Shown here: positions 17,923 through 64,000 of the stretch, one piece after another
Layout of the letters: every line of letters begins with the position of its first letter
Position numbering within the stretch: position 1 is the stretch's first letter
From: Candidatus Microgenomates bacterium
GTDB lineage: Bacteria; Patescibacteriota; Microgenomatia; UBA8517
Direction: 5' to 3'
Length of the DNA: 64,000 nt
Assembly: GCA_049523135.1 (NCBI GenBank)
Contig: JBEKNE010000001.1
Coordinates: 18,095-82,094, forward strand
Translations under genes and position numbers: made by a program
The notes under the pieces: model-generated
Told to the model about the DNA's origin: nothing
The model's database searches: none
What the model saw: the letters and a program-made list of their open reading frames with translations, nothing else

Positions 17923-17930
17923 AAATCTTG

Positions 17931-48913: not shown

Positions 48914-48953
48914 CGGAAAACTGCTTTAGGTAATAAGGGCAAAGTGTGCTACA

Positions 48954-49970: not shown

Positions 49971-50043
49971 ATAAATATCTACTTACAGATACATTATCCC
50001 CCATTTCAAAAAGTAGTCAATTTTTGAGAATAGAGATACAAAA

Positions 50044-50232
50044 TTACTTTTTTAAAAAATCTATGAAAGGCCTAACTCCCAAAACCAACGCAATCACCAA
50101 AAACCAAGCCCAATGAATGTTCATTACCAAATTGGCAAATGCCGGCCAAGCGGAAACTACAAATAAAGTAAAAAACAGCACCGACCATTTTGTTAAACCC
50201 ACATCCCAAATTCCAAAATGCTTAAGTTTCAT
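50044..50232 (-). CDS. Hypothetical small membrane protein
   Basis: 62 aa with two TM helices. Has a 4-nt overlap with the next ORF. Confidence 0.3.
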   Translation of the reverse strand: MKLKHFGIWDVGLTKWSVLFFTLFVVSAWPAFANLVMNIHWAWFLVIALVLGVRPFIDFLKK

Positions 50233-50510
50233 TTTTCACCCCCTTTCCACCCAGCAGCTCGCATTGCGATAAACATAACAAGCATTCCAATAAGATAGCC
50301 CTTACAAGTTGCAACAAACTCATTAAATTGCGCCTGGCTACCGGTAAACCATGCAAGAGGCAACAAAATAGCCCACACCACAAGGATTAGCAGTACGAAG
50401 GGCCACAACGGATATTTCTTTTTCGGAAATCCCCTTCGCCACCAATTGATAAAACTTAAGAGTCCAAGGATAACAAATATTAGAGCGACTATTTGTGCTG
50501 GTGAAGCCAT
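50229..50510 (-). CDS. Hypothetical small membrane protein
   Basis: 93 aa with three TM helices. Confidence 0.3.
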   Translation of the reverse strand: MASPAQIVALIFVILGLLSFINWWRRGFPKKKYPLWPFVLLILVVWAILLPLAWFTGSQAQFNEFVATCKGYLIGMLVMFIAMRAAGWKGGEK

Positions 50511-50827
50511 ACGTTAAATATATACCCGATAAATTATGGCATCAATGATAATTGAAATACATAATGCTAACTAGCTCCCCTGTGGGATGCGATCTGCACA
50601 TTTGGCCTCCATTCTAACAGATTCATCGCGTAATCTTTGGAGATCTGAAAATTGGTAAATGTTTGACAGAAATCCGTTAACAATCAATACTTAATTGTTA
50701 CCAATTTGTAACTTAAATTGTGACAAGTTTTATAAGGAAAACAACTAGGATAACAACGAAATTTCTAACACCACTACTCATCGTTTTGACGCAGTTCTTT
50801 TTTTTGTTGTTCCATTAGTGGTTTTTA

Positions 50828-52099
50828 TTGATATTTATGAAGATTTTAACCAAAATTGTAGTACCTATATTGGTATTAGTTATTGCCGTAATGATCTTTG
50901 TTTTTATCAATGTAGTCAAAATACAAGCAGTGACACCACCAGACCGCGGGCTTGGAGCAGCAGATAGCTATGGCGTTTTTGGCAAAAATGGTGTTACAAA
51001 CTCCGGAGCCTCGACTCACATCTGGGGGAATGTCGGTGCTGATTCCTCTGTAAGCGGACTAATCCCGTCGCAAGTTGATGGAACTATTAATACTGGAGCG
51101 GGAGTTGCGGGAGTTCAAACAGATGCTTCATCAACATATGATAGCCTAATGTCGGCTACCCAGGGGACATCGACAGGTTTGGACTTAGCCGGAACCAACA
51201 CTATTACGCCTGGCGTCTACGATGTCGGTGCAAGCACATTAAACGGTACACTAACTCTTAATGGCGCCGGGGTTTATATTTTCCGCAGCTCTTCAAGCAA
51301 TACCACGAGTGGAGGAACAATGAACTTGATTAATGGCGCTTGTGCCAGCGATGTTTTCTGGGCGGTCTCTGCTTCAATGACTATTGGTTCTGGTTCACAT
51401 GTTGAGGGTACGATTATTGCTCAAACTGGCCTTATCTCGCTCGGAACTAATGCGAGTTTGGTGGGTAGGGCTATTTCACTCATTTCTCAGGTAACATTAC
51501 TTAGTAATCAAATTACCCAACCTGTTTGTGGTACACCAACACCCACACCTACAGCCACTCCGACACCAACACCTACACCCACATCAACGCCGACTCCTAC
51601 TCCCGCGGCTACTCTAATATCAACCCCGACACCAACCACATTTGTTACCACGTCATCGGGTGGTGTTAGTTTTGCAAATTGTCCAGCTCTTAGTGATCAG
51701 ATAGTTCCACCCAATATTATTGATTCAAAAAGAGTTAGCCCAACGAGCATCTTTATTAGTTGGGCGCCATATTCTGGAACAAATACTTTTAATGTTGAAT
51801 ATGGTACTACAGATGGAAACTGGGCATATAATACTGATGTAACAGGCTTTTCGACAACCCTTGGTTCTCTCCCGGCTAATGTCCCAATTTGGGTTCATAT
51901 TGCGGCAAGAAGTGATTGTAGAATAGGGAATTATGGTCCGGCTAAGCTTACTGGAGGTCCAGGCTTGCCAGATACTGGTTTTGCGCCTGATAAAAATAAT
52001 ATTTTATTGTATTTGGCGGCAGTAATTTTTGTAGGAGTTATGGTTTTAACCGTTTTGATTGAGAAAAAATACAAAGCCGATAATGGTACTTTTAAGTAA
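50828..52099 (+). CDS. Cell-surface protein: DUF3494 (ice-binding-like) domain + Thr/Pro linker + FN3-like region + LPXTG sortase anchor
   Basis: Signal/TM sequence. DVFWAVSASMTIGSGSHVEGTIIAQTGLISLG pattern of DUF3494. TPTPTPTATPTPTPT repeat. C-terminal LPDTG followed by a hydrophobic helix and KKYK. Confidence 0.7.
   Translation: MIFMKILTKIVVPILVLVIAVMIFVFINVVKIQAVTPPDRGLGAADSYGVFGKNGVTNSGASTHIWGNVGADSSVSGLIPSQVDGTINTGAGVAGVQTDASSTYDSLMSATQGTSTGLDLAGTNTITPGVYDVGASTLNGTLTLNGAGVYIFRSSSSNTTSGGTMNLINGACASDVFWAVSASMTIGSGSHVEGTIIAQTGLISLGTNASLVGRAISLISQVTLLSNQITQPVCGTPTPTPTATPTPTPTPTSTPTPTPAATLISTPTPTTFVTTSSGGVSFANCPALSDQIVPPNIIDSKRVSPTSIFISWAPYSGTNTFNVEYGTTDGNWAYNTDVTGFSTTLGSLPANVPIWVHIAARSDCRIGNYGPAKLTGGPGLPDTGFAPDKNNILLYLAAVIFVGVMVLTVLIEKKYKADNGTFK
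51533..51612 (+). repeat. Thr-Pro dipeptide repeat-encoding tract (ACNCCN)n inside the surface protein gene
   Basis: acacccacacctacagccactccgacaccaacacctacaccc... This is a coding low-complexity linker. Confidence 0.6.
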
Positions 52100-52112
52100 C
52101 CGCTGTGTTTTG

Positions 52113-52231
52113 ATGGAAGGCATCCTGCACATGTATGTGCCCCAGCTCATCGACGCTCTGGTCGACGACAAGGAAGTCGCCGAAGAAGCCAAGAGCTTTC
52201 ACAAAGAAGCGATGGACGCTTCCCGCAAATG
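52113..52231 (+). other. GC-rich 39-codon ORF remnant (MEGILHMYVPQLIDALVDDKEVAEEAKSFHKEAMDASRK), likely a foreign gene fragment
   Basis: Its local composition is conspicuously more GC-rich than the surrounding AT-rich genome. It has a coherent helical peptide but no upstream coding continuation. Confidence 0.3.
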
Positions 52232-52507
52232 AATTGCAAAGAACCTGAAGCAGATTTGACCCTCAAAAGTCATTTCGTAAGCCTTCAGGTTTTTTGTTGG
52301 GGAAAACCTAGGCGTAACCATCTATCACCGATGGTAAAATACGGATTTCAGGCATGCATTGATCGTAACTTTGTACGGATCAAAAACGACTGGCTCGAAT
52401 CATGGGACTCGTATCGAAAAGTAGATTGGATCAACGAGATCGAATACCCAGAGCTAACTTACCAGGAAACACAAAAGTTTTTATCAACAAAATTCCTGAG
52501 CAATTAA
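52229..52507 (+). CDS. Hypothetical protein in a compositionally atypical segment
   Basis: 92-aa ORF with no motif. Lies in the same atypical block. Confidence 0.3.
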   Translation: MNCKEPEADLTLKSHFVSLQVFCWGKPRRNHLSPMVKYGFQACIDRNFVRIKNDWLESWDSYRKVDWINEIEYPELTYQETQKFLSTKFLSN

Positions 52508-52532
52508 GTTACACCACCACCTAGCTCACGAC

Positions 52533-53285
52533 TTATTTGACTTCCTCTTCTTCTATCAACAGAGTTGGGTCTTGATTCGTATAGCCCCCATCAACAGTTA
52601 ATACTTGACCATTTATGTAGTCTGAATCATTAGACAGTAAGAATTTAATTGTATTCGCAATATCTTCAGGATGAGCAATCCTTTCAAGTGGGTTAGTTTC
52701 TGCCAGCCTGTCATAGAAGCTCTGGCTATTACCCTCGATCATAGGAGTAGAAACCCAACCAGGAGCAATTGAGTTAACCCTTATTTTCTTATCTCTAAAA
52801 AGCAATGAAAGCGATTTCGTCAAGGAATTGACACCCGCCTTGCTTGCTGCGTAGCTAGCCGTCACAGAGCCACCATAGTAAGAATCTGTGGAGCTGATCA
52901 TTACAAAGCGACCGTTGTGAGCCAAATTGTCGGATAAGAGTTTGGCTAAATAGAAGTTGCTGGACAAATTGACGGCAATGGTTTCATTCCAGATTTGAAA
53001 GTCCTCTTCGTTGTTCTTTCCTTCAAACCTAACTATGCCCGCACAGTTCACCAAAGCATAAATCTCTTCGCCTTTCAGCGACTGAGTAAACTCTTTAATT
53101 GAAGCAAGATCGGAAATATCAAGGCTAACCTCCTTAAAGTTAGTATTCTTTTGAAGTTCAGTAGCTTTGGTAGAGTTATTATGGCTAGTCCCAATAACAA
53201 AGTATCCCTCACTTAACAAGGTCTCTGCAACTTTGATACCTATTCCACCTGAACAGCCGATGACAATTACTTTTCTTTGTGACAT
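52533..53285 (-). CDS. SDR family oxidoreductase
   Basis: N-terminal VIVIGCSGGIG and a YxxxK catalytic motif (YAASKAG). Confidence 0.8.
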   Translation of the reverse strand: MSQRKVIVIGCSGGIGIKVAETLLSEGYFVIGTSHNNSTKATELQKNTNFKEVSLDISDLASIKEFTQSLKGEEIYALVNCAGIVRFEGKNNEEDFQIWNETIAVNLSSNFYLAKLLSDNLAHNGRFVMISSTDSYYGGSVTASYAASKAGVNSLTKSLSLLFRDKKIRVNSIAPGWVSTPMIEGNSQSFYDRLAETNPLERIAHPEDIANTIKFLLSNDSDYINGQVLTVDGGYTNQDPTLLIEEEEVK

Positions 53286-53295
53286 AGTAATAAAC

Positions 53296-53805
53296 CTATT
53301 TTACAACACTATAATGCAACTGAGTTAGACCCTCGCCTAACTCCTTCTGGTCAATAAATCTAAGTTTTAGATCAGTTTCAACACCCCCGAACAATTTAAT
53401 GCCATTTCCAAGAATCAGAGGGTGAACACTTAAAAATACCTCGTCAATCAGATTTTCTTTTATAAATAAACCATTTGTAGTTCCTCCCCCTATCAAAAGA
53501 GCTTCATTGTGACCTCTACCCTGAGCCAGTTTAACTGCTTCGCTTGGTGATTGAACATAAATAACATTATCATTTTGCGATTTAAGCGAAAGGTCAGATG
53601 TCAAAACGATGTTAGTTACACCTTTAACTGGATAGAGGTCTCCTTGATACTGATCAAAAGTCCTACGACCAACAAAGATACAGCCCTTTTCTTTTATCTT
53701 GTGCTCGAAGTTGACGGAATCTACAGGAGAAACCCAGTCAGAATCACCATCTTTCTTGGCGATAAAACCGTCAATAGAAACAGCCATGTAAAGTGTTATC
53801 TTCAT
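53296..53805 (-). CDS. Dihydrofolate reductase-like protein (RibD C-terminal domain family)
   Basis: MKITLYMAVSIDGFIA...GGG...L.DE pattern of the RibD_C/DHFR fold. Confidence 0.7.
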   Translation of the reverse strand: MKITLYMAVSIDGFIAKKDGDSDWVSPVDSVNFEHKIKEKGCIFVGRRTFDQYQGDLYPVKGVTNIVLTSDLSLKSQNDNVIYVQSPSEAVKLAQGRGHNEALLIGGGTTNGLFIKENLIDEVFLSVHPLILGNGIKLFGGVETDLKLRFIDQKELGEGLTQLHYSVVK

Positions 53806-54131
53806 AACTCCTCTTCTGATAATAAAGGATAAATATCAAAAGCTACTTCCTCATAAGGATGAACCTTTTTAATAGCAGCTATCACCATTTTAGCTTTATT
53901 TCTGTCACAAACGCATTCAACTCTTTCTTCAATCACTTCTTCAAACTTGCCAACCTCACCAATGAAAGGTTTAGCGCCTTCTGTTGGCTTGTATCTTCCA
54001 AATCCATCTATCGAGAAACTGCAATGGCTATAATTCCCAATTTTCCCAGCCCCCGCATCACCCATCGCTTGTCTTACGACATCAGTGTGAGTTTTAGGAA
54101 CAAAGACGACAATTTTTACAAGTTTACCCAT
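53802..54131 (-). CDS. Hypothetical small alpha/beta protein (CutA/PII-like HPYEE motif), start at MGKLVK
   Basis: 110 aa. KIVVFVPKTH... and C-terminal KVHPYEEVAFDIYPL. The start was chosen to abut the upstream SDR stop. Confidence 0.35.
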   Translation of the reverse strand: MGKLVKIVVFVPKTHTDVVRQAMGDAGAGKIGNYSHCSFSIDGFGRYKPTEGAKPFIGEVGKFEEVIEERVECVCDRNKAKMVIAAIKKVHPYEEVAFDIYPLLSEEEL

Positions 54132-54132
54132 A

Positions 54133-54876
54133 TTAAGTGTGATAACCCTCGTAGGGTTCTTTCCCTTTCTTGATAACAAAAACTTTACCAGTAATTCCAC
54201 TTGCTTCCTCTGAACACAAAAATACTGCATATTTACCAATCTCACTTGGATCGATGGCTTCTCCAAGATACTGGGGAAAATACTTTTTATAAGCCTCTGT
54301 AGCGGTATCAGAAGGAGAGATGGCGTTGACTTGGATGTCTTTATCTTTAAGTTCTTCGGCAAGCCCTATGGTTAAATCTTCAATGCCCTTCTTAGAAACA
54401 AAATACGGTAACCAGCCTTTTGCTCCATTTTCAAATGTCCCAGAGATGTTGATAATCTTTCCTCCTTTTGGCATTAGGGGAATAAAAGCGTGCGCAAGAA
54501 GCGTTGGCGCAGTTAAACCAACTGCGTAAGTATCAAGAATAACTTGTTTAGAAAAGGACTCAAAATCTTTACCTGCATAGACCTCATCCTTGCCATGCCA
54601 AATACCAGCTACATTCACCAGAATATCAACCTTATCCGTCCTCTGTTTTATCAGGGCAACAAGAGCTTCCAACGAATCAGGCTTAGTAAAATCCCCTAAA
54701 AACACTCCTGCTTGACCACCATTCTCAGCAATCAAACTCTTCGTTTTCAACAGCTTATCTTGAGTTCGACCAGCCAAAGCAATGAAGGCGCCTTCTTTGG
54801 CTAACTCAAGGGCAATTGCCTGACCAATACCAGTAGAAGAACCTGTAACAATAGCAAACTTGTTTTTCATTTTCAT
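54133..54876 (-). CDS. SDR family oxidoreductase
   Basis: AIVTGSSTGIGQAIA Rossmann motif and the catalytic Y/K. Confidence 0.8.
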   Translation of the reverse strand: MKMKNKFAIVTGSSTGIGQAIALELAKEGAFIALAGRTQDKLLKTKSLIAENGGQAGVFLGDFTKPDSLEALVALIKQRTDKVDILVNVAGIWHGKDEVYAGKDFESFSKQVILDTYAVGLTAPTLLAHAFIPLMPKGGKIINISGTFENGAKGWLPYFVSKKGIEDLTIGLAEELKDKDIQVNAISPSDTATEAYKKYFPQYLGEAIDPSEIGKYAVFLCSEEASGITGKVFVIKKGKEPYEGYHT

Positions 54877-54948
54877 AATTTAATACACCAATTTTACCAA
54901 GTTAAGTATAACTCTTTTAGCAGAAAAATTGTATAATTAAGTTGAGTT

Positions 54949-55143
54949 ATGCCGAAGAAAAACACGACCCTACCAAAGTTGTTAACTATCCGCCAGGCAG
55001 CGGAGATTTTGAATGTCCATGTGGAGACACTGAGACGGTGGGATAAGGCTGGAAAGTTAAAAGCTATAAGAGTGAATGAGCGTGGTGACAGGCGTTACGA
55101 TCCAAAAGACATTGAGGCAATTCTGAAAAATAAGGAGTTGTAA
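54949..55143 (+). CDS. Excisionase-family helix-turn-helix DNA-binding protein (MerR-type HTH_17)
   Basis: LLTIRQAAEILNVHVETLRRWDKAGKLKAIR pattern. 64 aa. Confidence 0.65.
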   Translation: MPKKNTTLPKLLTIRQAAEILNVHVETLRRWDKAGKLKAIRVNERGDRRYDPKDIEAILKNKEL

Positions 55144-55144
55144 T

Positions 55145-55471
55145 ATGGAAGATTTACAGCAAAAAATTGATGTTATCCTAAATGAAGAAAAAAGAGCATA
55201 TTCAGCCAATGGTCGCAGAGGTGGTCATTTAGGCAGTTTCAACATCGACATTGGAGATGGCTGGACTGATGCTTATCCGAAAGCTGGAGCGTATCCACAA
55301 CTTTTAGCAATCCCCGCAAACTTAGATGCCATACAGTCACCACAGGCAACCGTATTACTAAAACTTTATTCTTCAATCAACTCAGAAGACAAAATACAAT
55401 TTAAAAATACCCTGCTTTCTTACCTCTCCAAAAACACCTCCTTTTTTGAAATCTTTTCATATTCAACTTGA
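55145..55471 (+). CDS. Hypothetical protein
   Basis: 108-aa ORF starting 2 nt after the HTH gene stop. Confidence 0.35.
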   Translation: MEDLQQKIDVILNEEKRAYSANGRRGGHLGSFNIDIGDGWTDAYPKAGAYPQLLAIPANLDAIQSPQATVLLKLYSSINSEDKIQFKNTLLSYLSKNTSFFEIFSYST

Positions 55472-55662
55472 CGACTTTCGTCAATTTCTAAAGGAGATAA
55501 CAAATAATTCTGTAACATATATTCAGCAAGTTCTTTCGTGGATGTCCCTAAAATCTGGGAGGAGGATAGAGAGTTTATATCGTTTTGAACTGCTTTTTCA
55601 GCAGCTAGATAGTAATCACTGAATGTGGGGGTGCCAAAAGTTTGAATCGATTGAATTTTCAT
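55420..55662 (-). CDS. Hypothetical protein (convergent, overlaps previous ORF end)
   Basis: 80-aa ORF of weak support. Confidence 0.2.
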   Translation of the reverse strand: MKIQSIQTFGTPTFSDYYLAAEKAVQNDINSLSSSQILGTSTKELAEYMLQNYLLSPLEIDESRQVEYEKISKKEVFLER

Positions 55663-55771
55663 TTTAATTACTTATTTCCTTACCTGGATTATATTCCTTC
55701 TGACAAATGTTTATAAATGCTTGGAAGTTGCTATATAATACGCTTAGTTAGAGACCTAAAACTTTATAGTC

Positions 55772-56551
55772 ATGGTCAAAAAGCCTCAGTGGGTAAAAGC
55801 TCGTCATCAGAGCTTCTCACTGAGGTCGTGTCTCGAAAGGGACATGGGTAGTCGAAAGACTGCCACTGGTGGCGAGCTTTTTCGTGGTAATAAGCTCCCA
55901 AAAAATAAAATCATGCTTACAAAAGAACAGAAATTAAAAATAAAAGAAGAGGAGAAATTCAGGGCTCAGGTTAGAAATGAGCAAGAGCAGAAAGAAAAAC
56001 CCAATAGAGGAAAAGGTTGTCTGGTTGTAATTGCTATATTTATTGGTTTGGCTATCGTGATGGGAATTACCCAAGGATTATATCGAGCTTCACTCCCCAA
56101 GCCTACTCCTTCGCCAACTCCATCTGCAAAATTTATGTCAGACCTCTCAGATTTATTCTGTCTAAGCAGGCAGGGAATATATGCCTATGAAAGTTTTATT
56201 TGCATGGGTTGTGCAAACCTTGACGATATTCACAGTTTTCTTAATAGCTCTGAGCCTGTAACAATCAACAAAGCTGAAAAAGCTCCCACAAAGGAATCCT
56301 GCAACAATGTCGCCAGTGATTGCGTACAAAGATGGGATGAAAAGACCTGTATAAATATCGCAGCTCAAAAATACTGGCTGGGAATGACAAAAGACCAGTT
56401 AATTACCTCACTTGGCCTCCCCAATCAACAGAATGATACTGTTGGAAGCTGGGGATTTCATACTCAATGGGTCTATGGGACTTATGGCCCATATATTTAT
56501 TTGGAAGGAACAGACAAAGACCATTTAAAGGTAACAAGTTATCAGGATTAA
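55772..56551 (+). CDS. Hypothetical membrane-anchored protein with Cys-rich extracytoplasmic domain (start uncertain, possibly Met at ~55907)
   Basis: Lys/Glu-rich segment, a TM helix, then a domain with several Cys. Confidence 0.4.
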   Translation: MVKKPQWVKARHQSFSLRSCLERDMGSRKTATGGELFRGNKLPKNKIMLTKEQKLKIKEEEKFRAQVRNEQEQKEKPNRGKGCLVVIAIFIGLAIVMGITQGLYRASLPKPTPSPTPSAKFMSDLSDLFCLSRQGIYAYESFICMGCANLDDIHSFLNSSEPVTINKAEKAPTKESCNNVASDCVQRWDEKTCINIAAQKYWLGMTKDQLITSLGLPNQQNDTVGSWGFHTQWVYGTYGPYIYLEGTDKDHLKVTSYQD

Positions 56552-57003
56552 AGTTCTGATTTTGGTAAGACATTTTTTGTAATAACTAATTTAAAAGAGT
56601 TTTGAATTAGAAATGGTATACATACCTGTTTTGTTCATGAACGGCTTTAAAATGACGTTTGAGGCACTTACACTCAATTTTAAGAGGGCTATTAGACAAG
56701 TTTTTATTCACAAAATCGAGGCCAGATTCTATAGTTTGATATAGTATAATAATTTTATTATATTTAGGCATAACCAATCGCTGTTGAACAGTGGTTTATA
56801 GGGGGTTAAAGAGGGGCAAATCACTAATTAATAGAGGTCAAGTAATCATAAATAAATTCCTTAATGCCTAAAGGGCTAGTGAAAGGCGTCTTCGTCTTCA
56901 TTTTTTTATTTAACTTAATTTGATAGCCCCACCCCCACCACCTTTCTAATAGCCACCCCTAGTTTTGGCATATTACTCCTCTCGAAAAATATGTACATAT
57001 TTT

Positions 57004-57055
57004 TTGACTTTAAGTGTAATTTAGACTATTAATTTCCCAAAAATTGTGTTATAAT
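57004..57055 (+). promoter_or_regulatory. Putative promoters in long non-coding region (TTGACT-17-TATTAA and extended -10 TGTGTTATAAT)
   Basis: Hexamers read directly from the sequence. Confidence 0.35.
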
Positions 57056-57111
57056 GTAGGCATTAGACAGGCATCTGGATTTTCCAGATAATACCAACCA
57101 CTAATCATGAG

Positions 57112-57150
57112 TTGAGCCTCAGCAAGTTATTGCTGGGGTTTTTTAATGGC
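57112..57150 (+). terminator. Rho-independent terminator-like hairpin + U-tract
   Basis: CCTCAGCAA-GTTA-TTGCTGGGG followed by TTTTTT. Confidence 0.45.
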
Positions 57151-57291
57151 AAAAGACTTCAGCCAAGCGTCAACTCATGAAAAAGGAAATTAAAAACAAA
57201 GAGGAGGCTTCAATCGACATGGCAGTCCAAGCGTGGTTTGACATTGTTTTTATGACCATTCAAGCACAGAAGGAAATGAAAATTAAAAAAG

Positions 57292-57543
57292 ATGAAAAAC
57301 TACACCACTAAAGATTTATATTTGGCCTCCTTGTTATTTGCTCAAGGCAGGAGCTTGAAAGGACTTCAAAAGGTAGGAAGAGATTATTGGTTCCAGTTTG
57401 ATGAATGCGATTCTTGCAATCAAACAATTTCAGATTATTGGAAAGGAATAGTAAGTGTTGATGCCAGAAAGTTTGTGGATTCGATAAAAAACCTAAAAAG
57501 CATGATTTTTTCTGAGATGGAGAAAGAAAAGCTAACTAGTTAA
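57292..57543 (+). CDS. Hypothetical small protein (mobile-element-associated; N-terminus TKDLYLASLL resembles DUF5659-like proteins)
   Basis: 83-aa ORF. The family assignment is tentative. Confidence 0.35.
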   Translation: MKNYTTKDLYLASLLFAQGRSLKGLQKVGRDYWFQFDECDSCNQTISDYWKGIVSVDARKFVDSIKNLKSMIFSEMEKEKLTS

Positions 57544-57563
57544 GAAAAATAAAAGAAATTAAT

Positions 57564-58154
57564 ATGAAAATTGAAAAGGTACTCAGAAAATTAAATAGTA
57601 GTTTTCAAAAGACTGAACGCAACAGACACATATTTGCACGTATTTTAAAGTTTTCTGATTCAGAATATCGACTTTACGACCTATATCTAGCCCTCTATGA
57701 CTGGGACAAAAAACATATTGGAACTTATGGCACTGTGGAAATAACAGACGAGGAAGTTGGATTTATTCTCTTTTGGTCACCTGCAAAAGTTTGCAGAATC
57801 AGGAACAAACTTTTAAATAAAAACCTAATTATACTTATCGGCAAAAGTACCTACAAAATATCCATCCTCCCAGAACCACCTATCAACGACAACCCAACAA
57901 TGTTGAAAGTTGAAGTTGCACCAATGAAAGAACCAGTTTCATACAAGCAAGAAAAACTTGCACCATTGCAAGAAAAAGAAGCCTACAAAGCCCCACCTTC
58001 TTTAGTTTCTTATAAGGATAATTACGTTTCTTTGAGGAGTGATAAGCAGTATGAGGATATGTGGTTAAGTATGGGTAAACCTAACAACTTTACTCCTGAC
58101 GATATGAAGTTTATCGACAACTCAGTTTATGAATCAATGGGGATAAAACCTTAA
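57564..58154 (+). CDS. Hypothetical protein
   Basis: 196-aa ORF directly upstream of the serine recombinase. Confidence 0.4.
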   Translation: MKIEKVLRKLNSSFQKTERNRHIFARILKFSDSEYRLYDLYLALYDWDKKHIGTYGTVEITDEEVGFILFWSPAKVCRIRNKLLNKNLIILIGKSTYKISILPEPPINDNPTMLKVEVAPMKEPVSYKQEKLAPLQEKEAYKAPPSLVSYKDNYVSLRSDKQYEDMWLSMGKPNNFTPDDMKFIDNSVYESMGIKP

Positions 58155-58201
58155 AAGTTTGAGAAAGAACATATAATTAATACTATAGGAAATATATTAA
58201 T

Positions 58202-59731
58202 ATGAATAACAAAAAGGCAATCATATATAAAAGGGTTTCAGACCCAGGACAACTTAGTGGTCTATCCTTAGATGTTCAGGAAGAAATATGCCGAAAGTGG
58301 GCTAAGGAAAATGGTTATGATGTAGTGGATGTTTTTGAAGATGGAGGAAAAACTGGAACTAAAACTGTTGGCAGACAGGGATTGGAAGACTCAGTCAATC
58401 GTTGCAAACAGAAAGATATTGATGCAATCCTAACTATTGATACTGACAGATTTGCCCGTAATGAACTTGACCACTATCTCTTAAAAGATGAACTTAATAA
58501 ACTTGGTACTCAGGTTATTGCAGTCAATCAGCCGATGATTGATGGCTCTCCAGAAGGTATGCTCTTAGAAAATAGCTTGATTGGCTTAAATGCTTTTTAT
58601 AGTCGCCTTATTGGAAGAAAAGTAAGAAAAAGTTTGGAAAAGAAATGGAACGATGGAGTTTATCCATCATGGGCTCCTTTGGGATATAAAAACGTCAATA
58701 TTGGAACGAAAGATAAGCCCAATCGAGTTATCAGAAAAGACCCTAAAATAGGCCCACTTATTACTGAACTCTTTAAACTTTATTCGACAGGAAGTTACAC
58801 ATACTTCAAACTTTGTGAGGAAATGCAAACAAGAGGTCTTCTGGCAAGGGGTGGAAAGATGCTTTGTGATAGTAGCGTCCAACAAATCATTTCCAACACC
58901 TTCTATTATGGATGGATGAAGTGGTCAGGAAAGGAAAAGATGGGAAAACATAAGCCTTTAATTTCCAAAGACTTATTTGACCAATGCCAATTTGTGGCGG
59001 CAAAGCACAGACAGTTCTTAACAAGGGAAAGGAAACACGACTTCTTATTAAGAGGGATTGCATATTGCCCAGTTCATAATTCAAGGCTAACTGCTGAATG
59101 GCATTATTACCATAATGACAAATTTAAGAAACCTAAAATTGGTTATTATCACTGCTACGCTCAAGGTGGATGTCCAACTTCATTTATTGAGGTGCCCAAG
59201 CTCGAGAGAAAGGTATCAAACCTCCTCAAAAACTATCAATTTAGTGAAAAGTTTATAGATTTAGTTGTGCAAAAGGCTAAAGATAATCTAAACGAAAGCA
59301 GAAAAAGCCTCAAGTTTAAAAGGCAGGGAATCATAAATAAACGCAGGGCCGTCGAAAAAAGCAGAAATAACCTTGAAGATTTGTTGACTGACAAAACGAT
59401 TGATAGAGATGTTTATTCAAGACAACATTCAAAGCTTGAGGCAGAGATTTTGGATTATGACAACCAACTATCCAAACTTGATAGTCAACAAAGCGTTGAC
59501 GTAGGCCTGATTGAAGAGGTGCTGTTCTTTAGTAGAAACATTTATAAAACTTATATGGAAGCTCCTACCTACCTCAAGAAGCATTACCTCAGATTCTTTT
59601 TTGAAACTATATATGTCAAAAATAAGCAGATTTCCAAAGTCGTTGAAACGCCCATTTTTGCAGCCTTGCGTAGGCAGAACTACATTATAATAAAGTTAGC
59701 TTTGCTCCGGCGACAGGATTCGAACCTGTAA
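58202..59731 (+). CDS. Large serine recombinase (resolvase/invertase catalytic domain + recombinase domain + zinc ribbon + coiled coil)
   Basis: N-terminal IIYKRVSDPGQ with the catalytic Ser. DTDRFARN. The recombinase domain carries a Cys/His cluster (CPVHNS...CYAQGGCP). The 3' end overlaps tRNA-Asn. Confidence 0.85.
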   Translation: MNNKKAIIYKRVSDPGQLSGLSLDVQEEICRKWAKENGYDVVDVFEDGGKTGTKTVGRQGLEDSVNRCKQKDIDAILTIDTDRFARNELDHYLLKDELNKLGTQVIAVNQPMIDGSPEGMLLENSLIGLNAFYSRLIGRKVRKSLEKKWNDGVYPSWAPLGYKNVNIGTKDKPNRVIRKDPKIGPLITELFKLYSTGSYTYFKLCEEMQTRGLLARGGKMLCDSSVQQIISNTFYYGWMKWSGKEKMGKHKPLISKDLFDQCQFVAAKHRQFLTRERKHDFLLRGIAYCPVHNSRLTAEWHYYHNDKFKKPKIGYYHCYAQGGCPTSFIEVPKLERKVSNLLKNYQFSEKFIDLVVQKAKDNLNESRKSLKFKRQGIINKRRAVEKSRNNLEDLLTDKTIDRDVYSRQHSKLEAEILDYDNQLSKLDSQQSVDVGLIEEVLFFSRNIYKTYMEAPTYLKKHYLRFFFETIYVKNKQISKVVETPIFAALRRQNYIIIKLALLRRQDSNL

Positions 59732-59776
59732 TCATCTCCTTAACAGGGAGCCGCGATACCGTTTCGCCACGCCGGA
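59705..59776 (-). tRNA. tRNA-Asn (GUU)
   Basis: Cloverleaf: acceptor TCCGGCG/CGCCGGA, D-arm GCGA-AACGGTA-TCGC, anticodon loop CTGTTAA, T-arm ACAGG-TTCGAAT-CCTGT. Confidence 0.8.
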
Positions 59777-59828
59777 ATAAAATACTTACGAGGCTAATTA
59801 TAGCATTTATATTTGCATTGCCAAAGAC

Positions 59829-61022
59829 ATGAGTTATAATCTTGTCATGGCCACAACCGATTGGGCAGTAAAACAAATTGAAGAGCTCAAGGGGCAACAC
59901 CTCTATAATAATATTCTGGTTTTGGAAAGTGCAGTTGGGCCGGAGGTAAAAATAAACGGAAAAAAGCTTCTGAATTTCTGCTCAAATAACTACTTAGGAT
60001 TGGCTAATAATCCTGAAATGAAAAAGGCGGCTATTGAAGCCATTAAAAAATACGGAATTGGCCCCGCGGCCGTAAGAACCATTGCCGGAACAACCGTTCT
60101 TCATAAAGAACTTGAGGCGGTTCTTGCCAAGTTTAAAAAAGCCCCGGCAGTTATCACCTTCCAAAGCGGATTTTCAGCAAATATTGCAGTTATTCCAGCA
60201 CTAGTCGGTGAGGGAGATTTAATTTTTTCCGATGAATTGAATCATGCCAGCATTATTGATGGCTGCAGGCTAAGTAGGGCCACTGTTATCAGATATGCTC
60301 ACACCGATCCTAAAGATTTGGAGGAAAAACTTAAAGCCGCCGATTCGAAAGTCAAAAGATTGGTAATTACTGATGGAGTTTTTTCAATGGACGGCGATAT
60401 TGCTCCGCTTGATAAAATTTATGCGGTTTCAAGCAAATACGGTGCAATGCTTATGGTTGACGACGCTCACGGAGAAGGAGTATTGGGAGAAAATGGCCGT
60501 GGAATTGTTGACCACTTTAAACTCCACGGAAAAGTTGATGTTGAGGTTGGAACCATGAGTAAGGCTTTTGGAGTTGTAGGCGGAATGGCCGCAGGAAAGA
60601 CTGAAATAATTGAGTGGCTATCACAACGGGGCAGGCCATTTCTTTTTAGTTCCGCTATGACAATTCCGGATGTTGCAGCCTGTATAGCCGCCGTAAAACT
60701 TCTGGAAAAGTCAGACAGTTTGGTTGAAAAACTCTGGAAAAATGCAGACTACTTGCGAACCGGACTTAAAAAATTAGGCTTTGATACAGGCACTTCCATC
60801 TCCCCTATTATTCCTTTGATGCTCGGAGATGCAAAGCTGGCACAAGATATGAGCAAGGAACTTTTTAACGAAGGTCTTTTTGCAAAAGCAATTGCCTATC
60901 CAACAGTTCCCCAAGGTAAAGCCAGAATCAGAATTATGAATTCGGCAGGCCATTCAAAAGAACAACTTGATAAAGCTCTTAAAATCTTTGAAAAAGTTGG
61001 TAAAAAACTAAACATAATATAA
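59829..61022 (+). CDS. kbl: 2-amino-3-ketobutyrate CoA ligase (glycine C-acetyltransferase)
   Basis: PLP-dependent AOS family. The PLP-lysine region is TMSKAFG. Paired with tdh. Confidence 0.8.
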
Positions 61023-62038
61023 TGCTTCAGGCTCTTGTTACAGGAATTTCGGGAGAGGTCGGACATGGTCTTATCAAGGCCTTATCTGCCTCCGAAGAGT
61101 TTGAAGTTTCGGCAGCCGATATTAAAAACCCGGATGAGGCAATTTCCGGAAATTTGAAGAACTTTTTTGAATGCGACGTTTCGGATTCCAACGCCGTAAA
61201 CAAGATTTTTGAGAAAGAAAATTTTGATATTATCTTTCATTTGGCCTCAATCCTTTCAACAGGAGGTGAAAAATCCCCGGAAAAAGCCATTGACGTAAAC
61301 ATTAAAGGAATCATAAATTTGCTTGAGGCGGCTACTAGTACAGCAATAAGATGCAAAAAATCCGCCAAGTTTATTTTTCCCAGTTCGATTGCAGCCTATG
61401 GTTTACCGTCTTTAGAAGAAAAATCAAAAAATAAAAGAGTTACTGAAGAACAATTCTTAAACCCAATAACAATTTACGGCATTTCCAAGCTCAATGGTGA
61501 AAAACTCGGCAGATATTTTTCCGAAAACTATATGCTGCTATCCGATCTGGACAGGAAAAATTTAATCGATTTCAGATGCGTAAGGTTTCCAGGACTTCTC
61601 TCCCCTGATACCGTTCCTTCAGGAGGAACCAGCGATTACGGATCCGAAATGATTCATGCCGCAGCCCAAGGACAAAGTTATGAATGCTTTGTAAGACCGG
61701 ATACAACAATTCCATTTATGGCAATGGCGGATGCCGCTGGGGCACTTCTGAGCCTTAGCAATACCTCAAAGACAAGTTTAACAACACGGATTTATAATGT
61801 CGCGGGGTTTAGCGTCTCGGCAAAAGAAATTGAAAATGAAGTTAAAAAGTTTTTCCCTAATTTTAAAGTCAGTTACAAAATTAATGAGGCCAGACAAAGG
61901 ATTGTTGACTCGTGGCCCATGGATATTGACGACTCCCTAGCGCAAAAGAATTGGGGCTGGAAGAAAAAATATGATTTCGAAAAGACTTTCTCCGAATATC
62001 TCGTTCCAAAAATTAAGGAGAGATATCAGTCCAAATAA
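61022..62038 (+). CDS. tdh: L-threonine 3-dehydrogenase, NAD-dependent epimerase/dehydratase (SDR-extended) type
   Basis: N-terminal [11 protein letters not shown] Rossmann motif. Its start overlaps the kbl stop. Confidence 0.75.
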
Positions 62039-63105
62039 TCCTGAAGTTTCTTTCTACGGCTTGGGTGTTTTAGTTTTCTGAGTGCTTTTGCTTCAATTTG
62101 ACGAATACGCTCACGGGTCACTCCAAATACCTTTCCAACTTCTTCAAGAGTCATCGCCTTGGTTCCTTCCAAACCAAATCTAAGCTTAAGAACTTTTGCT
62201 TCCCTTTCGGATAGTGTTCCCAAAACTTCTTCCAAATGATCTTTAAGCAGTTGCTTACTTGCCTGATCAACCGGCGAAAGTGTTGTTTCATCAGGAATGA
62301 AATCTCCCAAGAAACTTTCCTGATCCTCTCCGACAGGAGCTTCCAGAGAAGTGGTTTCCTGGGCAATTTTAAATATTTCTCTAATCCTATCTCCATCCAT
62401 TTCAAGTTCTTCTCCAATCTCTTCGGGGGTTGGCTCGCGTCCAAGTTCCTGCATAAGCCGCCTGCTGGTTCGATAAATTTTGTTAATTGTCTCAACCATA
62501 TGAACCGGAATTCTAATGGTTCTAGCCTGATCGGCAATCGCACGGGTAATCGCCTGCCTGATCCACCAGGTTGCATACGTAGAAAACTTATAACCCTTTC
62601 TCCAATCATACTTTTCAACCGCACGAATAAGTCCTTGATTTCCCTCCTGAATAAGATCAAGGAGAGAAAGACCCCTGCCGATATATTTCTTGGCGATTGA
62701 AACGACAAGTCTGAGGTTACTTTCCGTTAGTTTATCTTTTGCCCGCTTGTCTGCCTTTTCATATCTTTTGGCAAGCTCGACTTCATCCTCAGCCAAAAGA
62801 AGGGGAACTCTTCCGATCTCCCTTAAATATTGCCTGACAGGATCTGTTGATTCAATTCCTTCAAGTTTTGTAAGAAGTTCTATCTCGCGGTCAAGTTTTT
62901 CTTTGGCTTTTTCATCCGTCTCAATTTCCCCCGGAGTTACAGACTCAAAAACATCAATTCCTTCAGCAAGAAGTTTTTCATATAAATCATCAAGTTCAGG
63001 GACTCTTTCTTCCGCATCAGGAAATACCTCCATTATTTCCTCTTGTGTCAGGAACCCTTGATCACGACCTTTTTTAATTAAATCGAGTACTGGTTTTCGT
63101 ATCAT
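62026..63105 (-). CDS. rpoD: RNA polymerase sigma factor RpoD/SigA
   Basis: Region 2.4 motif [28 protein letters not shown] plus regions 3 and 4. Confidence 0.9.
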
Positions 63106-64000
63106 TGTTCATTGAGTATCACACCACTACCGTTTTCCTCTTCGTAACCGGAAAGTGATTTGGCGAGTTTATTAAATTCATTTTGAGCTTTAAGTAGCTT
63201 ATCTTTATCGCCTTTTTCTTCCGTATCCCGCATTTGAGAGGCTAAAACCTTTAACCTTTCTTTTACAGTATGTATTTTAAGCTCTTTTTTGACTAAATCC
63301 AACTCCCTCTTAAGTTCATCGGGATTTTCCATTAAATCCTGGTTGTCGGTAAGAACCATTTCGGAAAATGCCTGAAAAAGTTCAGCCGGCAATTTACTCC
63401 CAAACTCGGTTACGTTAAACGCCTTATCGGTAGGATATTTTGTATATTCTTCAACTAGCCTTTTATATATTGGGAGTGAAATAAGTCCGGCAGACTCTTT
63501 TGAAAGAAGATTCTTCGGATCGGACTGAAAAACCAAGGCTAAATATCTTTCTTCCAAAAGATCTCTTTTGTTTTTTTCATGCACTTCTTCCGGAATTTCA
63601 GTGGATTTGGCGGTAAGAACTTCAGCTGATTTTCCGATTTCTTCGGTAACCGCCTCCAGAGGTACCCCAAGCCTCCCCGCCACAATATTTGCGTAGTGCG
63701 ACTGAACAATCTTGTCACTTATTTCTCTAAGGATCGGAATAATTTCTTTAGAAATCTTTGACTTTCCGGCACCACTCTCTGAATTAACCCGCGCAAAAAC
63801 AGAGTCAATAAAGAAATCGTAAATTCCCTCTGCTGCAATTAAGTCTTTTTTATAGCTTTCCAGGTTTCCGCGAGCAGCATCATCAGGATCTTTATATCCA
63901 CTTATTTTTGCGACTTTTACTTCTACCCCAAGATCGCTGGCAATTTTAATTCCGCGCCTGTCTGCTGCATCCCCTGCCACATCACTATCGAGTGCCAAAA
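63102..64000 (-). CDS. dnaG: DNA primase DnaG, C-terminal part (gene continues beyond window end)
   Basis: Toprim motif [12 protein letters not shown] and the C-terminal helicase-interaction region. Classic dnaG-rpoD order. Confidence 0.8.

Follow-up and report, generated by a model that had tools for sequence, protein, structure and literature searches.

Successive integration of large serine recombinase elements as the probable origin of an island at a tRNA-Asn gene of Candidatus Microgenomates

In a 64,000-nt stretch (the window) of a Candidatus Microgenomates genome, which is Woesebacteria-like, a gene for a large serine recombinase (LSR) ends inside a tRNA-Asn gene. This arrangement raises the question of what kind of mobile element lies here and how far it extends. 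The original prediction described an integrative element with the recombinase at one end and an excisionase-like helix-turn-helix gene at the other, possibly reaching to ~50.5 kb. The region from 49.5 to 59.7 kb is read here as a composite island of successive LSR-element integrations at the 3' end of tRNA-Asn(GUU), with a probability of about 0.8.

The recombinase, LSR(A) (58202-59731, + strand), is a full-length protein of 509 aa with the catalytic Ser13 in the motif R11-V-S13-D-P-G-Q17, as predicted. It matches Pfam Resolvase (E 2e-25) and Recombinase (3e-13), the PHROG category "integrase" (E 1e-79), and, in PDB, the catalytic domain of TP901-1 integrase (E 2.6e-11); Zn_ribbon_recom scored below the Pfam threshold (20.3 bits vs the cut-off 25.3). 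The conserved residues are kept in the family alignment A1, and the named ones of its 317 homologues are nearly all from Patescibacteria. Judged from its sequence, LSR(A) is intact and typical of its kind. The convergent tRNA-Asn gene (- strand, anticodon GUU/gtt, no intron) was placed at 59704-59776 by ARAGORN and at 59705-59776 by Rfam (64.7 bits), and thus the overlap, also recognized originally, is 28 or 27 nt. The final eight codons and stop of LSR(A) (L-R-R-Q-D-S-N-L-stop) run in antisense through the 3' strand of the acceptor and the T arm. On the tRNA-Asn side, a promoter-like TTGGCA-16-TG-TATAAT is present at 59824-59797 (11/12 in the promoter scan).

This overlap is a family trait. 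A readable C-terminus is available for 70 related LSR loci, and in 37 of them the LSR gene runs antisense into tRNA-Asn: in 29 metagenome loci the LSR 3' end overlaps a tRNA-Asn(gtt) that ARAGORN places on the opposite strand, and in a further eight the overlapped tRNA-Asn carries a group I intron. Because it recurs in these 29 + 8 loci, the overlap is not due to chance. Other tRNAs are used by only four related loci, and the protein tails of the family (..N-W/L-L-P-R-x-D-S-N..) are the antisense of CCA, the acceptor stem, and the T arm. The tRNA-Asn gene is the integration target and corresponds to the B' arm of attB.

The right edge of the element was defined by comparison with a sister strain. 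In strain B (L173/L180/L174/L181), a different 9.8-kb segment replaces 55450-59703 of the window strain (strain A), while the flanks are 100% identical; the LSR of strain B shows 26% identity to LSR(A). The prediction of an LSR-borne integrative element at the 3' end of tRNA-Asn is supported. Element-specific DNA stops at 59703, and from 59704 rightward the strains with different elements are 100% identical. This breakpoint fixes the right edge of element-specific DNA, not the exact crossover. The attR junction, TTTG/CTCC (59701-59708; the slash marks the junction), is indicated by the A/B breakpoint and by related attL/attR pairs. GCTC(C) is the sole sequence common to the attL/attR pairs of six related loci, and the family-wide crossover core is likely to be GCTC(C) at 59704-59708, which covers tRNA nt 73-70 and a single trailer base; it measures some 4-6 nt, with GCTC at tRNA positions 71-73. 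Since the core is only GCTC(C), at most 2-3 nt of the tRNA plus the trailer are element-derived, and beyond these few bases there is no support for a tRNA terminus supplied by the element.

The family attP contains a GGTTATAWTA dyad centred on GCTC(C), with for example 11/14 and 10/14 matches (P<=2e-4). At its 3' end LSR(A) carries the motif ATTATAAT (59684-59691), 12 nt before the core, and this end would double as the P arm of attP. The canonical attR of the newest element is intact, and a dyad scan with its own P arm located no P' in the window. The second att repeat sought originally is absent: the tRNA 3' segment is unrepeated window-wide, with chance-level 10-mers only. Such a repeat is not required for a serine integrase.

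The island is variable among relatives. Related Woesebacteria have 0.9-3.8 kb at this position vs 10.3 kb in the window (49.5-59.8 kb). In L003, a zn-ribbon gene is followed by ~0.35 kb, an intron-containing tRNA-Asn, and Kbl; synteny with the window breaks after the zn-ribbon gene (ends at 49451) and resumes at Kbl. The whole stretch from ~49.5 kb to the tRNA is therefore missing in L003 and is non-core, in agreement with its supposed non-housekeeping nature. The 3.8 kb at the island position in L009 includes two fossil P' sites. In strain C (L178/L187), 50611-57330 (6.7 kb) is gone between 11-nt repeats (ATTTGGCCTCC) with 100% identical flanks, and this loss is a microhomology deletion. The suggested comparison with related genomes thus revealed relatives that lack the island, but no look-up yielded an empty attB. 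No excised circle was found, nor any circular contig among the contigs checked. The A/B difference could have spread via homologous recombination in the flanks, not by fresh integration in the present lineage.

The best model is a stack of three elements: R1, the oldest; R2; and the newest, an element of 4.25 kb at 55450-59704, which contains the intact LSR, orf196, a DUF5659 gene, orf44, a membrane protein ORF, and a LOOT RNA gene. Its composition is distinct from its surroundings (GC 0.36 in 55442-59704 vs 0.40-0.41 in the flanks). Directly upstream of the LSR is the conserved accessory gene orf196 (57564-58154, +). It is related to the c49 family (27% identity, E 3e-10), which occupies the same position in L140, L143, and L145, and in other elements this slot contains HTH_36, DnaD_N, or RepL-like proteins; orf196 is a candidate replication initiator or directionality factor. 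The 83-aa DUF5659 protein (57292-57543, +; Pfam E 1.4e-7), already suspected from the sequence, belongs to cluster c1, the commonest accessory gene of the family, found 0.9-1.9 kb upstream of the LSR in 19 loci. The different element of strain B also has a DUF5659 gene (L180, 5985-6242). The 740-bp non-coding region described earlier was located at 56552-57291, but its truly non-coding part is ~625 bp, because the 44-aa orf44 (57177-57311, +) inside it has tblastx matches in two close relatives (L171 and L087). The remainder (56552-57176) contains promoter-like sites and a palindrome with 13-nt arms (56982-57007), shows no Rfam family at the gathering threshold, and may be a control or origin region. 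To its left, orf235 (55844-56551, +), present in the ORF list and the JGI gene call, is a predicted single-pass membrane protein with a C-terminal homologue in L089 (E 1e-21) and no Pfam or PHROG match.

The LOOT RNA gene (55748-55869, +) scores 78.6 bits against Rfam RF03000 (gathering score 46.4). A promoter-like site (55710-55739) precedes it and a terminator hairpin (55860-55874) followed by a T run ends it. The fold z-score of the window copy is -6.9, and covariation was observed at 16/31 pairs in four copies. With the covariance model, copies were detected in 10 LSR loci and in 0/7 empty host loci. In these 10 related elements LOOT is a promoter-to-terminator unit on either strand, 2.3-4 kb upstream of the LSR.

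At the left junction (55445-55450), A/B strain identity ends at 55449, and this breakpoint falls within a gene of which strain B has the complete version (337 aa). The junction is crossed by an orphan ORF, orf80 (55420-55662, -), without a homologue among 5.8 billion clusters; its last ~10 codons lie in the neighbouring element, and therefore it may be a truncated or fused gene. The left junction is more likely to be the scar of a deletion than an intact attL, and the left end of the newest element is probably deleted. It is also conceivable, if unlikely, that the newest element has its full length with 4.25 kb and a true LSR crossover as its left junction. The core would be TTTG or TG (55445-55448 and 59701-59704), the target a pseudo-attB in the 337-aa gene or an attB allele ending ..TTTTTTG/CTCC, and the attP junction ..GCTTTG/AAATCTTTTC... 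The 4-nt TTTG is indeed common to both junctions, P-P' joining leaves the LSR frame open for 57 codons (ORF 55446-55622; chance ~2% in this composition), and total dyad matches are 14/30 (P 0.013). However, a TTTG crossover into the pseudo-site would leave a 1-nt discrepancy with strain B, as the attB deduced from strains A vs B differs by one G, and a crossover left of GCTC is excluded by the related pairs L116 and L112. This reading also calls for another deletion at the right end, one that stops exactly at the tRNA. In the sister-strain element and in many family members, the LSR ORF goes on past the junction into an extension of 36-45 aa whose sequence comes from the opposite end of the element, and therefore integration would swap the C-terminal tail; for LSR(A) no conserved extension was demonstrable, the 57-aa candidate having no relative among 1.84 billion representatives. 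Moreover, a length of 4.25 kb is half that of any family element whose ends have been mapped.

To the left, R2 (52397-55449) corresponds to the leftmost 3.05 kb of a B-type element and is 100% identical to L173 up to 55449; the 12.8-kb element is intact in the sister strain (L173/L180). R2 encodes an SDR (52533-53285, -), a RibD_C/DHFR-like protein (53296-53805, -), a 109-aa ORF (53802-54131, -), a second SDR (54133-54876, -), an HTH_17 protein (54949-55143, +), and orf108 (55145-55471, +), a truncated form of the 337-aa gene that reads across the 55449 breakpoint in strain B. The sequence TGGCTC at 52391-52396, the attL core of the B-type element, is identical to the attR core beside the tRNA in strain B. 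In the attP reconstructed from the P arm of L180 and the P' arm of the window, the LSR(B) frame is open for 36 more codons. Immediately to the left lies an LSR 3'-end fossil (52256-52390, +; ..LKSHFVSL..FQACIDRNFVRIKNDWL), which marks the right end of R1. In tblastn with 16 queries, the LSR tails P0062 and P0041 match 52346-52417 (E 7e-4 and 1e-3); with the family C-terminus HMM alone, the fossil is not significant. R1 (from roughly 49452 to 52390) encodes an Ice-binding-like protein (50828-52099, +; Pfam Ice_binding E 2e-26), which has a PT repeat and an LPDTG signal, and also contains three small membrane ORFs (49773-50510, -).

That 49.5-59.7 kb is one 10-kb element with one LSR, and the SDR, DHFR-like, and Ice-binding genes its cargo, agrees with the absence of the entire block from L003 and with the size of related elements (8-12 kb), which carry cargo such as restriction-modification genes, KAP NTPase, and methyltransferases. 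It is nevertheless quite improbable: at the internal junction 52391-52396 an LSR 3' fossil is followed by the P' of a different element, strain B shares 44133-55449, yet a different LSR and different content follow to the right, and GC is unequal between layers. The extension to ~50.5 kb was thus right for the island, but the island is composite.

A single discrete element from HTH_17 (54949) to the tRNA, with the HTH as its excisionase and the tRNA 3' part supplied by the element, is highly improbable. The HTH_17/MerR (E ~1e-12) and PHROG "excisionase and transcriptional regulator" (1e-11) matches confirm the excisionase-like identity, HTH_17 genes (cluster c3) are found in 18 related LSR loci, the genes switch strand at ~54.9 kb, and the GC drop begins near 55.1 kb. 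Yet 54949-55449 is 100% identical in the strain bearing a different element and LSR, and for this reason HTH_17 does not mark the other end of the newest element; it is an internal gene of the older 12.8-kb B-type element with its own LSR, left in the truncated R2. In strain B the gene next to the HTH has its full 337 aa, but in the window it is cut short; 54877-54948 contains no att-like repeat, and strain-specific DNA ends at 59703, hence the tRNA is common to the strains.

Although serine integrases are best known from temperate phages and the LSR has a PHROG "integrase" match, a prophage or phage satellite can be given scarcely any weight, as Pfam and PHROGs revealed no capsid, terminase, tail, or lysis gene in the newest and related elements, 2.9 million IMG/VR contigs yielded no family member (best matches 23-28% identical), the cargo is defence- and metabolism-like, and the HTH_36/RepL-like genes suggest plasmid-type replication.

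Under the composite-island model, an incoming circular element would bring attP at the 3' end of its own recombinase gene and recombine with the tRNA end via the 4-6-nt core GCTC(C), the antisense of tRNA nt 71-73 plus trailer. The recombinase gene would thereby be set beside the tRNA, reading into it, and the earlier occupant displaced away from it. Older elements would shrink by deletion; deletions cannot enter the tRNA, and therefore LSR 3'-end fossils would remain. Similar arrangements were found in related loci: L166 has a tandem array of a truncated LSR, 9 kb, and a second LSR with tRNA-Asn, and L107 combines an attL that has the native hairpin B arm with an LSR after which comes the P' of another element. 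The left part of the newest element and 9.8 kb of the adjoining B-type element were probably lost in one deletion, and thus the newest element may no longer excise.

The family resembles the serine integrases of phages and ICEs (TP901-1 Int, A118/LI Int, Bxb1 Int, phiC31 Int) in the N-terminal resolvase domain with its Ser nucleophile, the recombinase domain, and the zinc ribbon, in an attP that adjoins the integrase gene, in minimal att-site homology without long flanking repeats, and in dyad-symmetric binding motifs, here predicted, in the attP arms. In contrast, its target is not a protein-coding gene but the very 3' end of a tRNA gene; it also lacks phage genes and resides in Patescibacteria. 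Its attP sits within the recombinase ORF, at the 3' end, which means that the conserved C-terminus V-I-I-R-x-N-W-L is encoded by the P half-site; the LSR stop codon comes from whatever adjoins across the junction.

An attP inside a gene, with the product altered by integration, is known from SSV1-type integrases and from mycobacteriophage integration-dependent immunity. The replacement of the LSR tail, as predicted from the ORFs of many family members and the sister-strain element, would be comparable, but the exchange is confined to the tail and leaves the catalytic protein whole, and the enzyme is a serine, not a tyrosine, recombinase. The tyrosine-integrase tRNA islands (P4-like, pSAM2-type AICEs) share the tRNA 3'-end site, the integrase gene adjoining the tRNA, serial accretion with the youngest nearest the tRNA and older layers decaying, and defence and metabolic cargo. 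They use another enzyme family; the 15-76-bp tRNA 3' repeat was searched for and is absent in the window, where the tRNA stays essentially host-encoded.

Serine recombinases at tRNA genes, described as "rare", have been reported for Mycobacterium AICEs (tRNA-Leu) and the filamentous phage phiRSM1 (tRNA-Ser) (Ghinet et al. 2011, PMC3218068), and the window case therefore has precedent. It differs in the phylum, in the use of tRNA-Asn, and presumably in the recombinase clade, and also in that the recombinase ORF itself overlaps the tRNA, with dozens of loci alike. As for LOOT, the window copy passes the curated threshold and folds like the family. To our knowledge, it is an orphan motif seen in metagenomes only and without an assigned function. 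It was described in the survey of Weinberg et al. 2017 (PMC5737381), and it gains a genomic context here via the LSR elements. The novelty is modest: a tRNA-targeting LSR family in Patescibacteria, and an orphan RNA as its repeated passenger.

The tRNA-Asn locus is a stack of three layers of large serine recombinase (LSR) elements with continuing turnover and decay. The layers are an oldest one (R1, ~49.5-52.39 kb), the left stump of an element of the type found in sister strain B (R2, 52397-55449; the B-type element), and the newest element, A (55450-59704). The core of the original prediction, an integrated serine-recombinase element at tRNA-Asn, was right. The tRNA-Asn(gtt) gene was located with ARAGORN at 59704-59776 on the minus strand (Rfam, 59705-59776, 64.7 bits). 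The recombinase of the window, LSR(A), is encoded on the plus strand (58202-59731, 509 aa) and contains Resolvase, Recombinase and weak Zn_ribbon_recom domains in Pfam. The resolvase catalytic domain (PF00239, residues 6-153, E 2.3e-25) includes Ser13 within Y9-x-R11-V-S13..Q17, a motif nearly invariant among 34 homologues, and the catalytic domain of TP901-1 integrase in PDB matches LSR(A) with E 2.6e-11. PF07508 was detected with E 2.5e-13. PF13408 reached 20.3 bits, under its cut-off of 25.3, and is precomputed in most homologues; Cys262, Cys289 and Cys324 are invariant in the homologue alignment. The PHROG category "integrase" matches with E 1e-79. With its catalytic serine, recombinase domain and zinc ribbon, LSR(A) is a large serine recombinase by domain content. 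The predicted run of this RVSDPGQ-bearing recombinase into tRNA-Asn was borne out: the overlap is 27-28 nt, and the final codons, L-R-R-Q-D-S-N-L-stop, read the acceptor 3' strand and T arm of the tRNA in antisense.

The exact LSR(A) protein is on record from a 766-kb contig of "Candidatus Microgenomates bacterium". There are 317 homologues at E<=1e-10, and the named ones are nearly all from Patescibacteria. More than half of the 120 homologues listed carry the tail ..N-(W/L)-L-P-R-x-D-S-N.., which is the antisense of CCA, the acceptor stem and GGTTCGAATCC. With the LSR family alignment, 80 metagenome loci (L-numbers below, with related-genome loci) were retrieved, 70 of which include the LSR C-terminus. 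An opposite-strand tRNA-Asn(gtt) recognized by ARAGORN overlaps the LSR end in 29 of these 70 loci; in 8 further loci the LSR adjoins a tRNA-Asn(GUU) whose nt 35 and 36 are separated by a group I intron, and 4 loci have other targets (tRNA-Tyr, Leu, Gln or Arg). The overlap of LSR and tRNA-Asn is a family trait, not an accident.

Several side observations concern these tRNA genes and their neighborhood. The tRNA-Asn(GUU) genes interrupted at nt 35/36 by a group I intron are frequent among Woesebacteria-like genomes (L003 ~9395-9670 and L009 ~9680-9950, both on the minus strand; L087, L089, L101, L113, L137, L140, L156, L162) and are overlooked by ARAGORN in default mode, so that the target of an element can be concealed in annotation. 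At such genes the LSR ORFs cross the 3' exon into the intron, with tails such as ..SYNSPSVTKRIGLSHH.. The window has a second intron-containing tRNA at 16293-16582 (+), with an Rfam group I intron at 16293-16531; ARAGORN with introns allowed gives tRNA-Leu(caa) at 16314-16582 with a 198-nt intron. A tRNA-Ile at 17930-18001 (-) has the anticodon TAT, an uncommon bacterial means of reading AUA. In six loci (L088, L096, L104, L136, L152, L155), the LSR end is followed by the first 22-27 nt of the tRNA in antisense, corresponding to the acceptor stem and part of the T arm, and then by unrelated DNA; it looks as if a second element type with a T-loop crossover was inserted between the LSR element and the tRNA. 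A small ORF of 110-166 aa with only a resolvase domain, ~30-35% identical to the LSR N-terminus, lies immediately upstream of the full LSR in L098 (4673-5074), L101 (10001-10384), L112 (10001-10321), L121, L129, L147 and L171 (6313-6813). Defence-type genes are abundant among the cargo of related elements and include type I restriction-modification (HsdM, HsdR), C5 cytosine methyltransferase, KAP NTPase, CHAT-domain protein and LexA-like repressor (accessory-gene clusters c7, c18, c23 and c24 of the L041 type; L001 3015-6296).

Related Woesebacteria loci were collected with the neighboring Kbl protein as a query. In L003 the order is lysyl-tRNA-synthetase-like, SET and zn-ribbon genes, ~0.35 kb, intron-containing tRNA-Asn, and Kbl, while in the window 10.3 kb separates the zn-ribbon gene (ending at 49451) from Kbl (starting at 59829). 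L009 has 3.8 kb between the zn-ribbon position and Kbl, with two fossil P' sites (P' is the element end opposite the LSR gene; the LSR-gene side is the P arm). L001, whose Kbl is 87% identical, has another LSR element at the same tRNA-Asn, with an LSR 66% identical. The island is thus a tRNA-linked element, situated at the tRNA-Asn 3' end and absent from relatives. The empty site proposed for such a comparison was found in part: the island is absent in L003, but L003 9380-9400 (+) retains GTAAGAACAGCTAGGCTCCCC beside the tRNA, which matches the family P arm AGAAGCAACTGGCTC at 11/15 positions and is probably the footprint of a lost element.

The breakpoints in sister strains were obtained by exact-protein look-ups (SDR2, Kbl, orf196) followed by blastn. 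Three configurations with 100% identical flanks were found. Configuration A, that of the window, is present in at least 3 samples. Configuration B (L173/L180, L174/L181, L175) shares 44133-55449 and 59704-64000 with the window at full identity, with 9.8 kb of unlike DNA in between; this DNA encodes a 534-aa recombinase, LSR(B), just 26% identical to LSR(A), along with proteins of the DUF5659, HTH_36 and HTH_3 families and cargo of the hydrolase, glyoxalase and cupin types. In configuration C (L178 and L187, two samples), 50611-57330 (6.7 kb) is lost between two copies of the 11-nt repeat ATTTGGCCTCC (window 50600-50610 and 57320-57330; L178 7492-7502), joining the membrane-gene region to a truncated DUF5659 gene. 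The two recombinases enter the tRNA in the same register (..A-L-L-R-R-Q-D-S-N-L* in LSR(A), ..I-W-L-R-R-Q-D-S-N-L* in LSR(B)). The presence of different elements at one site with flanks identical between strains is indirect evidence, from which attP x attB recombination by the LSR is predicted. As for a free circular form, no contig with terminal overlap was found, and the exact look-ups of orf196, SDR2 and Kbl returned integrated forms only.

The B-type element explains the HTH gene at 54949-55143. It was identified as HTH_17/MerR in Pfam and as "excisionase and transcriptional regulator" in PHROG, and genes of this type occur in 18 related LSR loci, which indicates that it is element-borne, though of the B-type element. 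The ORF after it is an unbroken 337-aa gene in strain B, whose first 101 codons are orf108 of the window; the left A/B breakpoint falls inside this gene. The B-type element therefore reaches left of the HTH gene. Its left end falls at 52391-52396: the remains of an LSR C-terminus (..FQACIDRNFVRIKNDWL) found there match the tails of the LSR homologues P0062 and P0041 (tblastn, E 7e-4 and 1e-3). The following TGGCTC is the same as the six bases preceding the tRNA at attR, the tRNA-side junction, of strain B, and joining the LSR(B) P arm to the sequence right of 52396 leaves the frame open for 36 codons (ESWDSYRKV...FLSN*). With these ends, the B-type element is 12.8 kb in strain B, and the window keeps only its left 3.05 kb (52397-55449), in which lie two SDR genes, a gene resembling RibD_C/DHFR, a 109-aa ORF, HTH_17 and what is left of the 337-aa gene. 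The reading of the HTH protein as the excisionase of the LSR(A) element thus stands in its family assignment but fails in its location inside B-type DNA. Nor does the gene mark the other end of that element, as its DNA is common to a strain with a different element and the adjacent 337-aa gene is truncated. As an annotation warning, an "excisionase" near an integrase may stem from a different, older element. In the oldest layer, 50828-52099 (+) encodes a protein with an Ice-binding-like domain, a linker of (T/A)PTP repeats and, at the C-terminus, an LPDTG sorting signal ahead of a membrane anchor.

The A-specific DNA spans 55450-59703 (4.25 kb). The composition check separated the layers only in part: the newest element is low in GC (0.36, for 55442-59704 as well, versus 0.40-0.41 in the flanks), whereas the older layers are host-like (0.40). 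From left to right, the newest element includes orf80 (-), which crosses the left junction and had no homologue in searches; the LOOT RNA gene (Rfam RF03000, 55748-55869, +); orf235, a membrane protein whose C-terminal part has a homologue in L089; a non-coding stretch of ~625 nt that holds promoter-like sites and a palindrome; orf44, conserved in L171 and L087; the DUF5659 gene at 57292-57543, confirmed with Pfam as predicted (AlphaFold model, pLDDT 59); and orf196, just before the LSR gene. The orf196 protein and the c49 family, found in the same slot, share 27% identity; in other elements this slot is occupied by HTH_36/DnaD_N/RepL-like proteins.

The attR of the newest element has the family register. 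Its left end does not seem to be an intact attL, the distal junction, because its neighbor is a truncated gene, the element reaches only half the length of relatives whose ends are mapped, and the HTH_17-LOOT adjacency of L098 and L122 is missing. The accessory genes were too mosaic to give the left boundary from the closest LSR relatives (L170, L171, L087, L001), and no attL was identified for L001. In the simplest history, element A would first have integrated at the tRNA, right of the B-type element, and a deletion would then have removed the right 9.8 kb of B together with the left part of A. Comparable deletions are seen directly in configuration C. A less likely alternative is a genuine crossover at the left junction, at the TTTG common to both junctions; LSR(A) has an open in-frame extension of 57 codons across the left junction. 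This crossover conflicts by 1 nt with strain B and also with the core positions in L116 and L112, and the extension has no relative in the loci, its sole match among 1.84 billion representatives being a repeat protein. Integration followed by deletion is thus preferred to a crossover at TTTG. The segment 55438-55449 was also rejected as attL (CTCC core with an LSR fossil at left), as it is coding sequence of the 337-aa gene intact in strain B, and the similarity of the fossil left of 55449 was never significant (E 0.7-9) and is spurious. A prophage is very unlikely, since PHROGs gave integrase and excisionase categories only, with no virion, packaging or lysis genes, and two scans of IMG/VR contigs found no member of the LSR family and nothing closer than 28% identity. 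No relaxase, coupling protein or type IV secretion genes were detected by Pfam among the window ORFs and scanned cluster representatives.

Searching the loci with a profile of non-tRNA LSR tails revealed, in L140, L106, L134, L116, L107 and L112, stand-alone tail copies that share the strand of the LSR and lie 7-10 kb upstream of it. These are attL sites and give an element size of ~8-12 kb. Within a locus, attL and attR have only GCTC(C) in common (GCTCC in L116, GGCTC in L112, TGCTCC in L134). Where P and P' are contiguous, GGTTATAWTA flanks both sides at 13-22 nt in inverted orientation, and the dyad center is the last C of GCTC. The dyad matches are 11/14 in L138, 10/14 in L140 and 9/14 in L118, L132 and L009 (P <5e-5 to 0.004 relative to nulls derived from the window). 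The LSR family thus has a short core, non-identical att arms and dyad symmetry of the attP arms. The att pairs and the dyad place the crossover inside tRNA positions 71-73 or the first trailer base, so at most 2-3 nt of the mature tRNA-Asn would be element-derived. The right A/B breakpoint is the tRNA 3' end; the tRNA sequence is therefore common to both configurations and essentially host-encoded, contrary to the original prediction that the element supplies the tRNA terminus. The predicted second att repeat is likewise absent: the tRNA-Asn 3' segment matched only chance 10-mers, both within 48-60 kb and across the entire window. It is also not needed, a direct repeat of this kind being typical of tyrosine integrases. 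Two sets of candidate repeats were rejected: GAACCTGTAA at 54839 lies inside the TGSSTGIG motif of an SDR gene and has no tRNA-like flank, and the T-arm-like motifs seen farther upstream in seven related loci are due to chance.

The tRNA-side sequence at attB is ..GCTCCGGCGACAGG, and the reconstructed B-type attP would be ..CCCAATCTGGCTC|GAATCATGGGAC. For element A, the P arm is ..AAGTTAGCTTTGCTC and the candidate P' at the 55449 junction is AAATCTTTTC. Scanning for the dyad with the window's own P arm did not locate its P' partner, the scan being non-discriminating in AT-rich DNA; the top match, at 57032, overlaps a promoter-like site, TGTTATAAT. A promoter-like site of this sequence, upstream of the orf44-DUF5659-orf196-LSR genes, is overlapped by GTTATAATGTAG (57049-57060), which in inverted orientation matches the LSR P-arm motif CTACATTATAAT (59680-59691) at 11/12 positions, a match at chance level in AT-rich DNA. 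Its location would suit autoregulation. A palindrome with 13-nt arms (56982-57007) lies 50 nt to its left. In L140, the attL of the 10.7-kb element contains, at 850-876, an exact duplicate of the terminal 27 nt of the element's LSR gene (11476-11502) ahead of the GCTC core, so attL resembles a complete attP; this duplicate could be functional or a relic of an earlier, identical element. In two unrelated contigs (L134 ~2225-2260, L107 ~67-130), the same hairpin-forming sequence, GCTTGCACTGAGCTTGCCGAAGTGCTCC, is found left of attL, and it may represent an unfossilised B arm, being the native terminator that follows tRNA-Asn.

The RNA of the newest element belongs to the LOOT family and has its secondary structure. 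Rfam scored it at 78.6 bits against the gathering threshold of 46.4 (55753-55864) and detected LOOT also in L098 (2857-2990), L087 (117-238) and L001 (6913-7035, minus strand). Among these four copies, 16/31 pairs show compensatory change, and the fold of the window copy has z = -6.9. It is preceded by a promoter-like TTTATA-18-TATAAT ending at 55739 and followed by a terminator hairpin and T run (55860-55880). A search with a covariance model of these four copies detected LOOT in 10 LSR loci, on either strand and 2.3-4 kb upstream of the recombinase gene (further loci: L136, L171, L122, L110, L112, L146), and in 0/7 empty host loci. LOOT is a recurring passenger of LSR elements. No published genomic context for LOOT was found in the literature, and this orphan RNA gains a genomic home.

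The left copy of GGTTATAWTA codes for the conserved V-I-I-R of the LSR C-terminus, the coding sequence of which is the P half-site GGTTATAATAAG. The right copy codes for N-I-T inside a conserved ~40-aa extension (..N-I-T..F-x-D-F-R-L-V-x-Q-I-R-E-E-I..), which includes the P' half-site CTAATATAACC. Many extensions end in ssrA-like tails (..ALAT, ..ALAIA, ..PAYA, ..GAAA; also ..ALATI, ..VAAI), as in P0066, P0119, P0104, P0090, P0106, L128, L124, L140 and L170 (3215-3300), and resemble the tmRNA tags of related genomes (..YAVAYA, ..YALAYA). This patescibacterial LSR family targets tRNA-Asn via an attP embedded at the end of the recombinase gene. A tentative proposal, to which a joint probability of about 0.3 is given, is that the extension is fused to the LSR only in a free element or in one followed by another element, and that integration at the tRNA swaps it for a few tRNA-antisense codons. 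Given these swapped tails and the ssrA-like ends, the two LSR isoforms could differ in stability or directionality. As part of the same proposal, LOOT might be a dedicated element RNA, possibly acting in replication or copy control or regulating the recombinase.

Mobile elements of Patescibacteria (CPR) are poorly described, and this locus and its sister strains show the exact gain and loss of DNA at one tRNA. They define a sizeable serine integrase family with a conserved, very short target at the tRNA-Asn end. Serine integrases are used as genome-engineering tools, and att sites readable straight from genomes are of practical interest. The locus also raises the testable idea that integration state and the recombinase C-terminus are linked. 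Integration of serine recombinases into tRNA genes is regarded as rare, with precedents in phiRSM1 (tRNA-Ser) and a group of Mycobacterium elements (tRNA-Leu) (Ghinet et al., PMC3218068), and nothing was found in the literature on LSR elements at tRNA-Asn in CPR bacteria. If the proposed exchange of tails is true, the family would provide a serine-recombinase analogue of integration-dependent switches.
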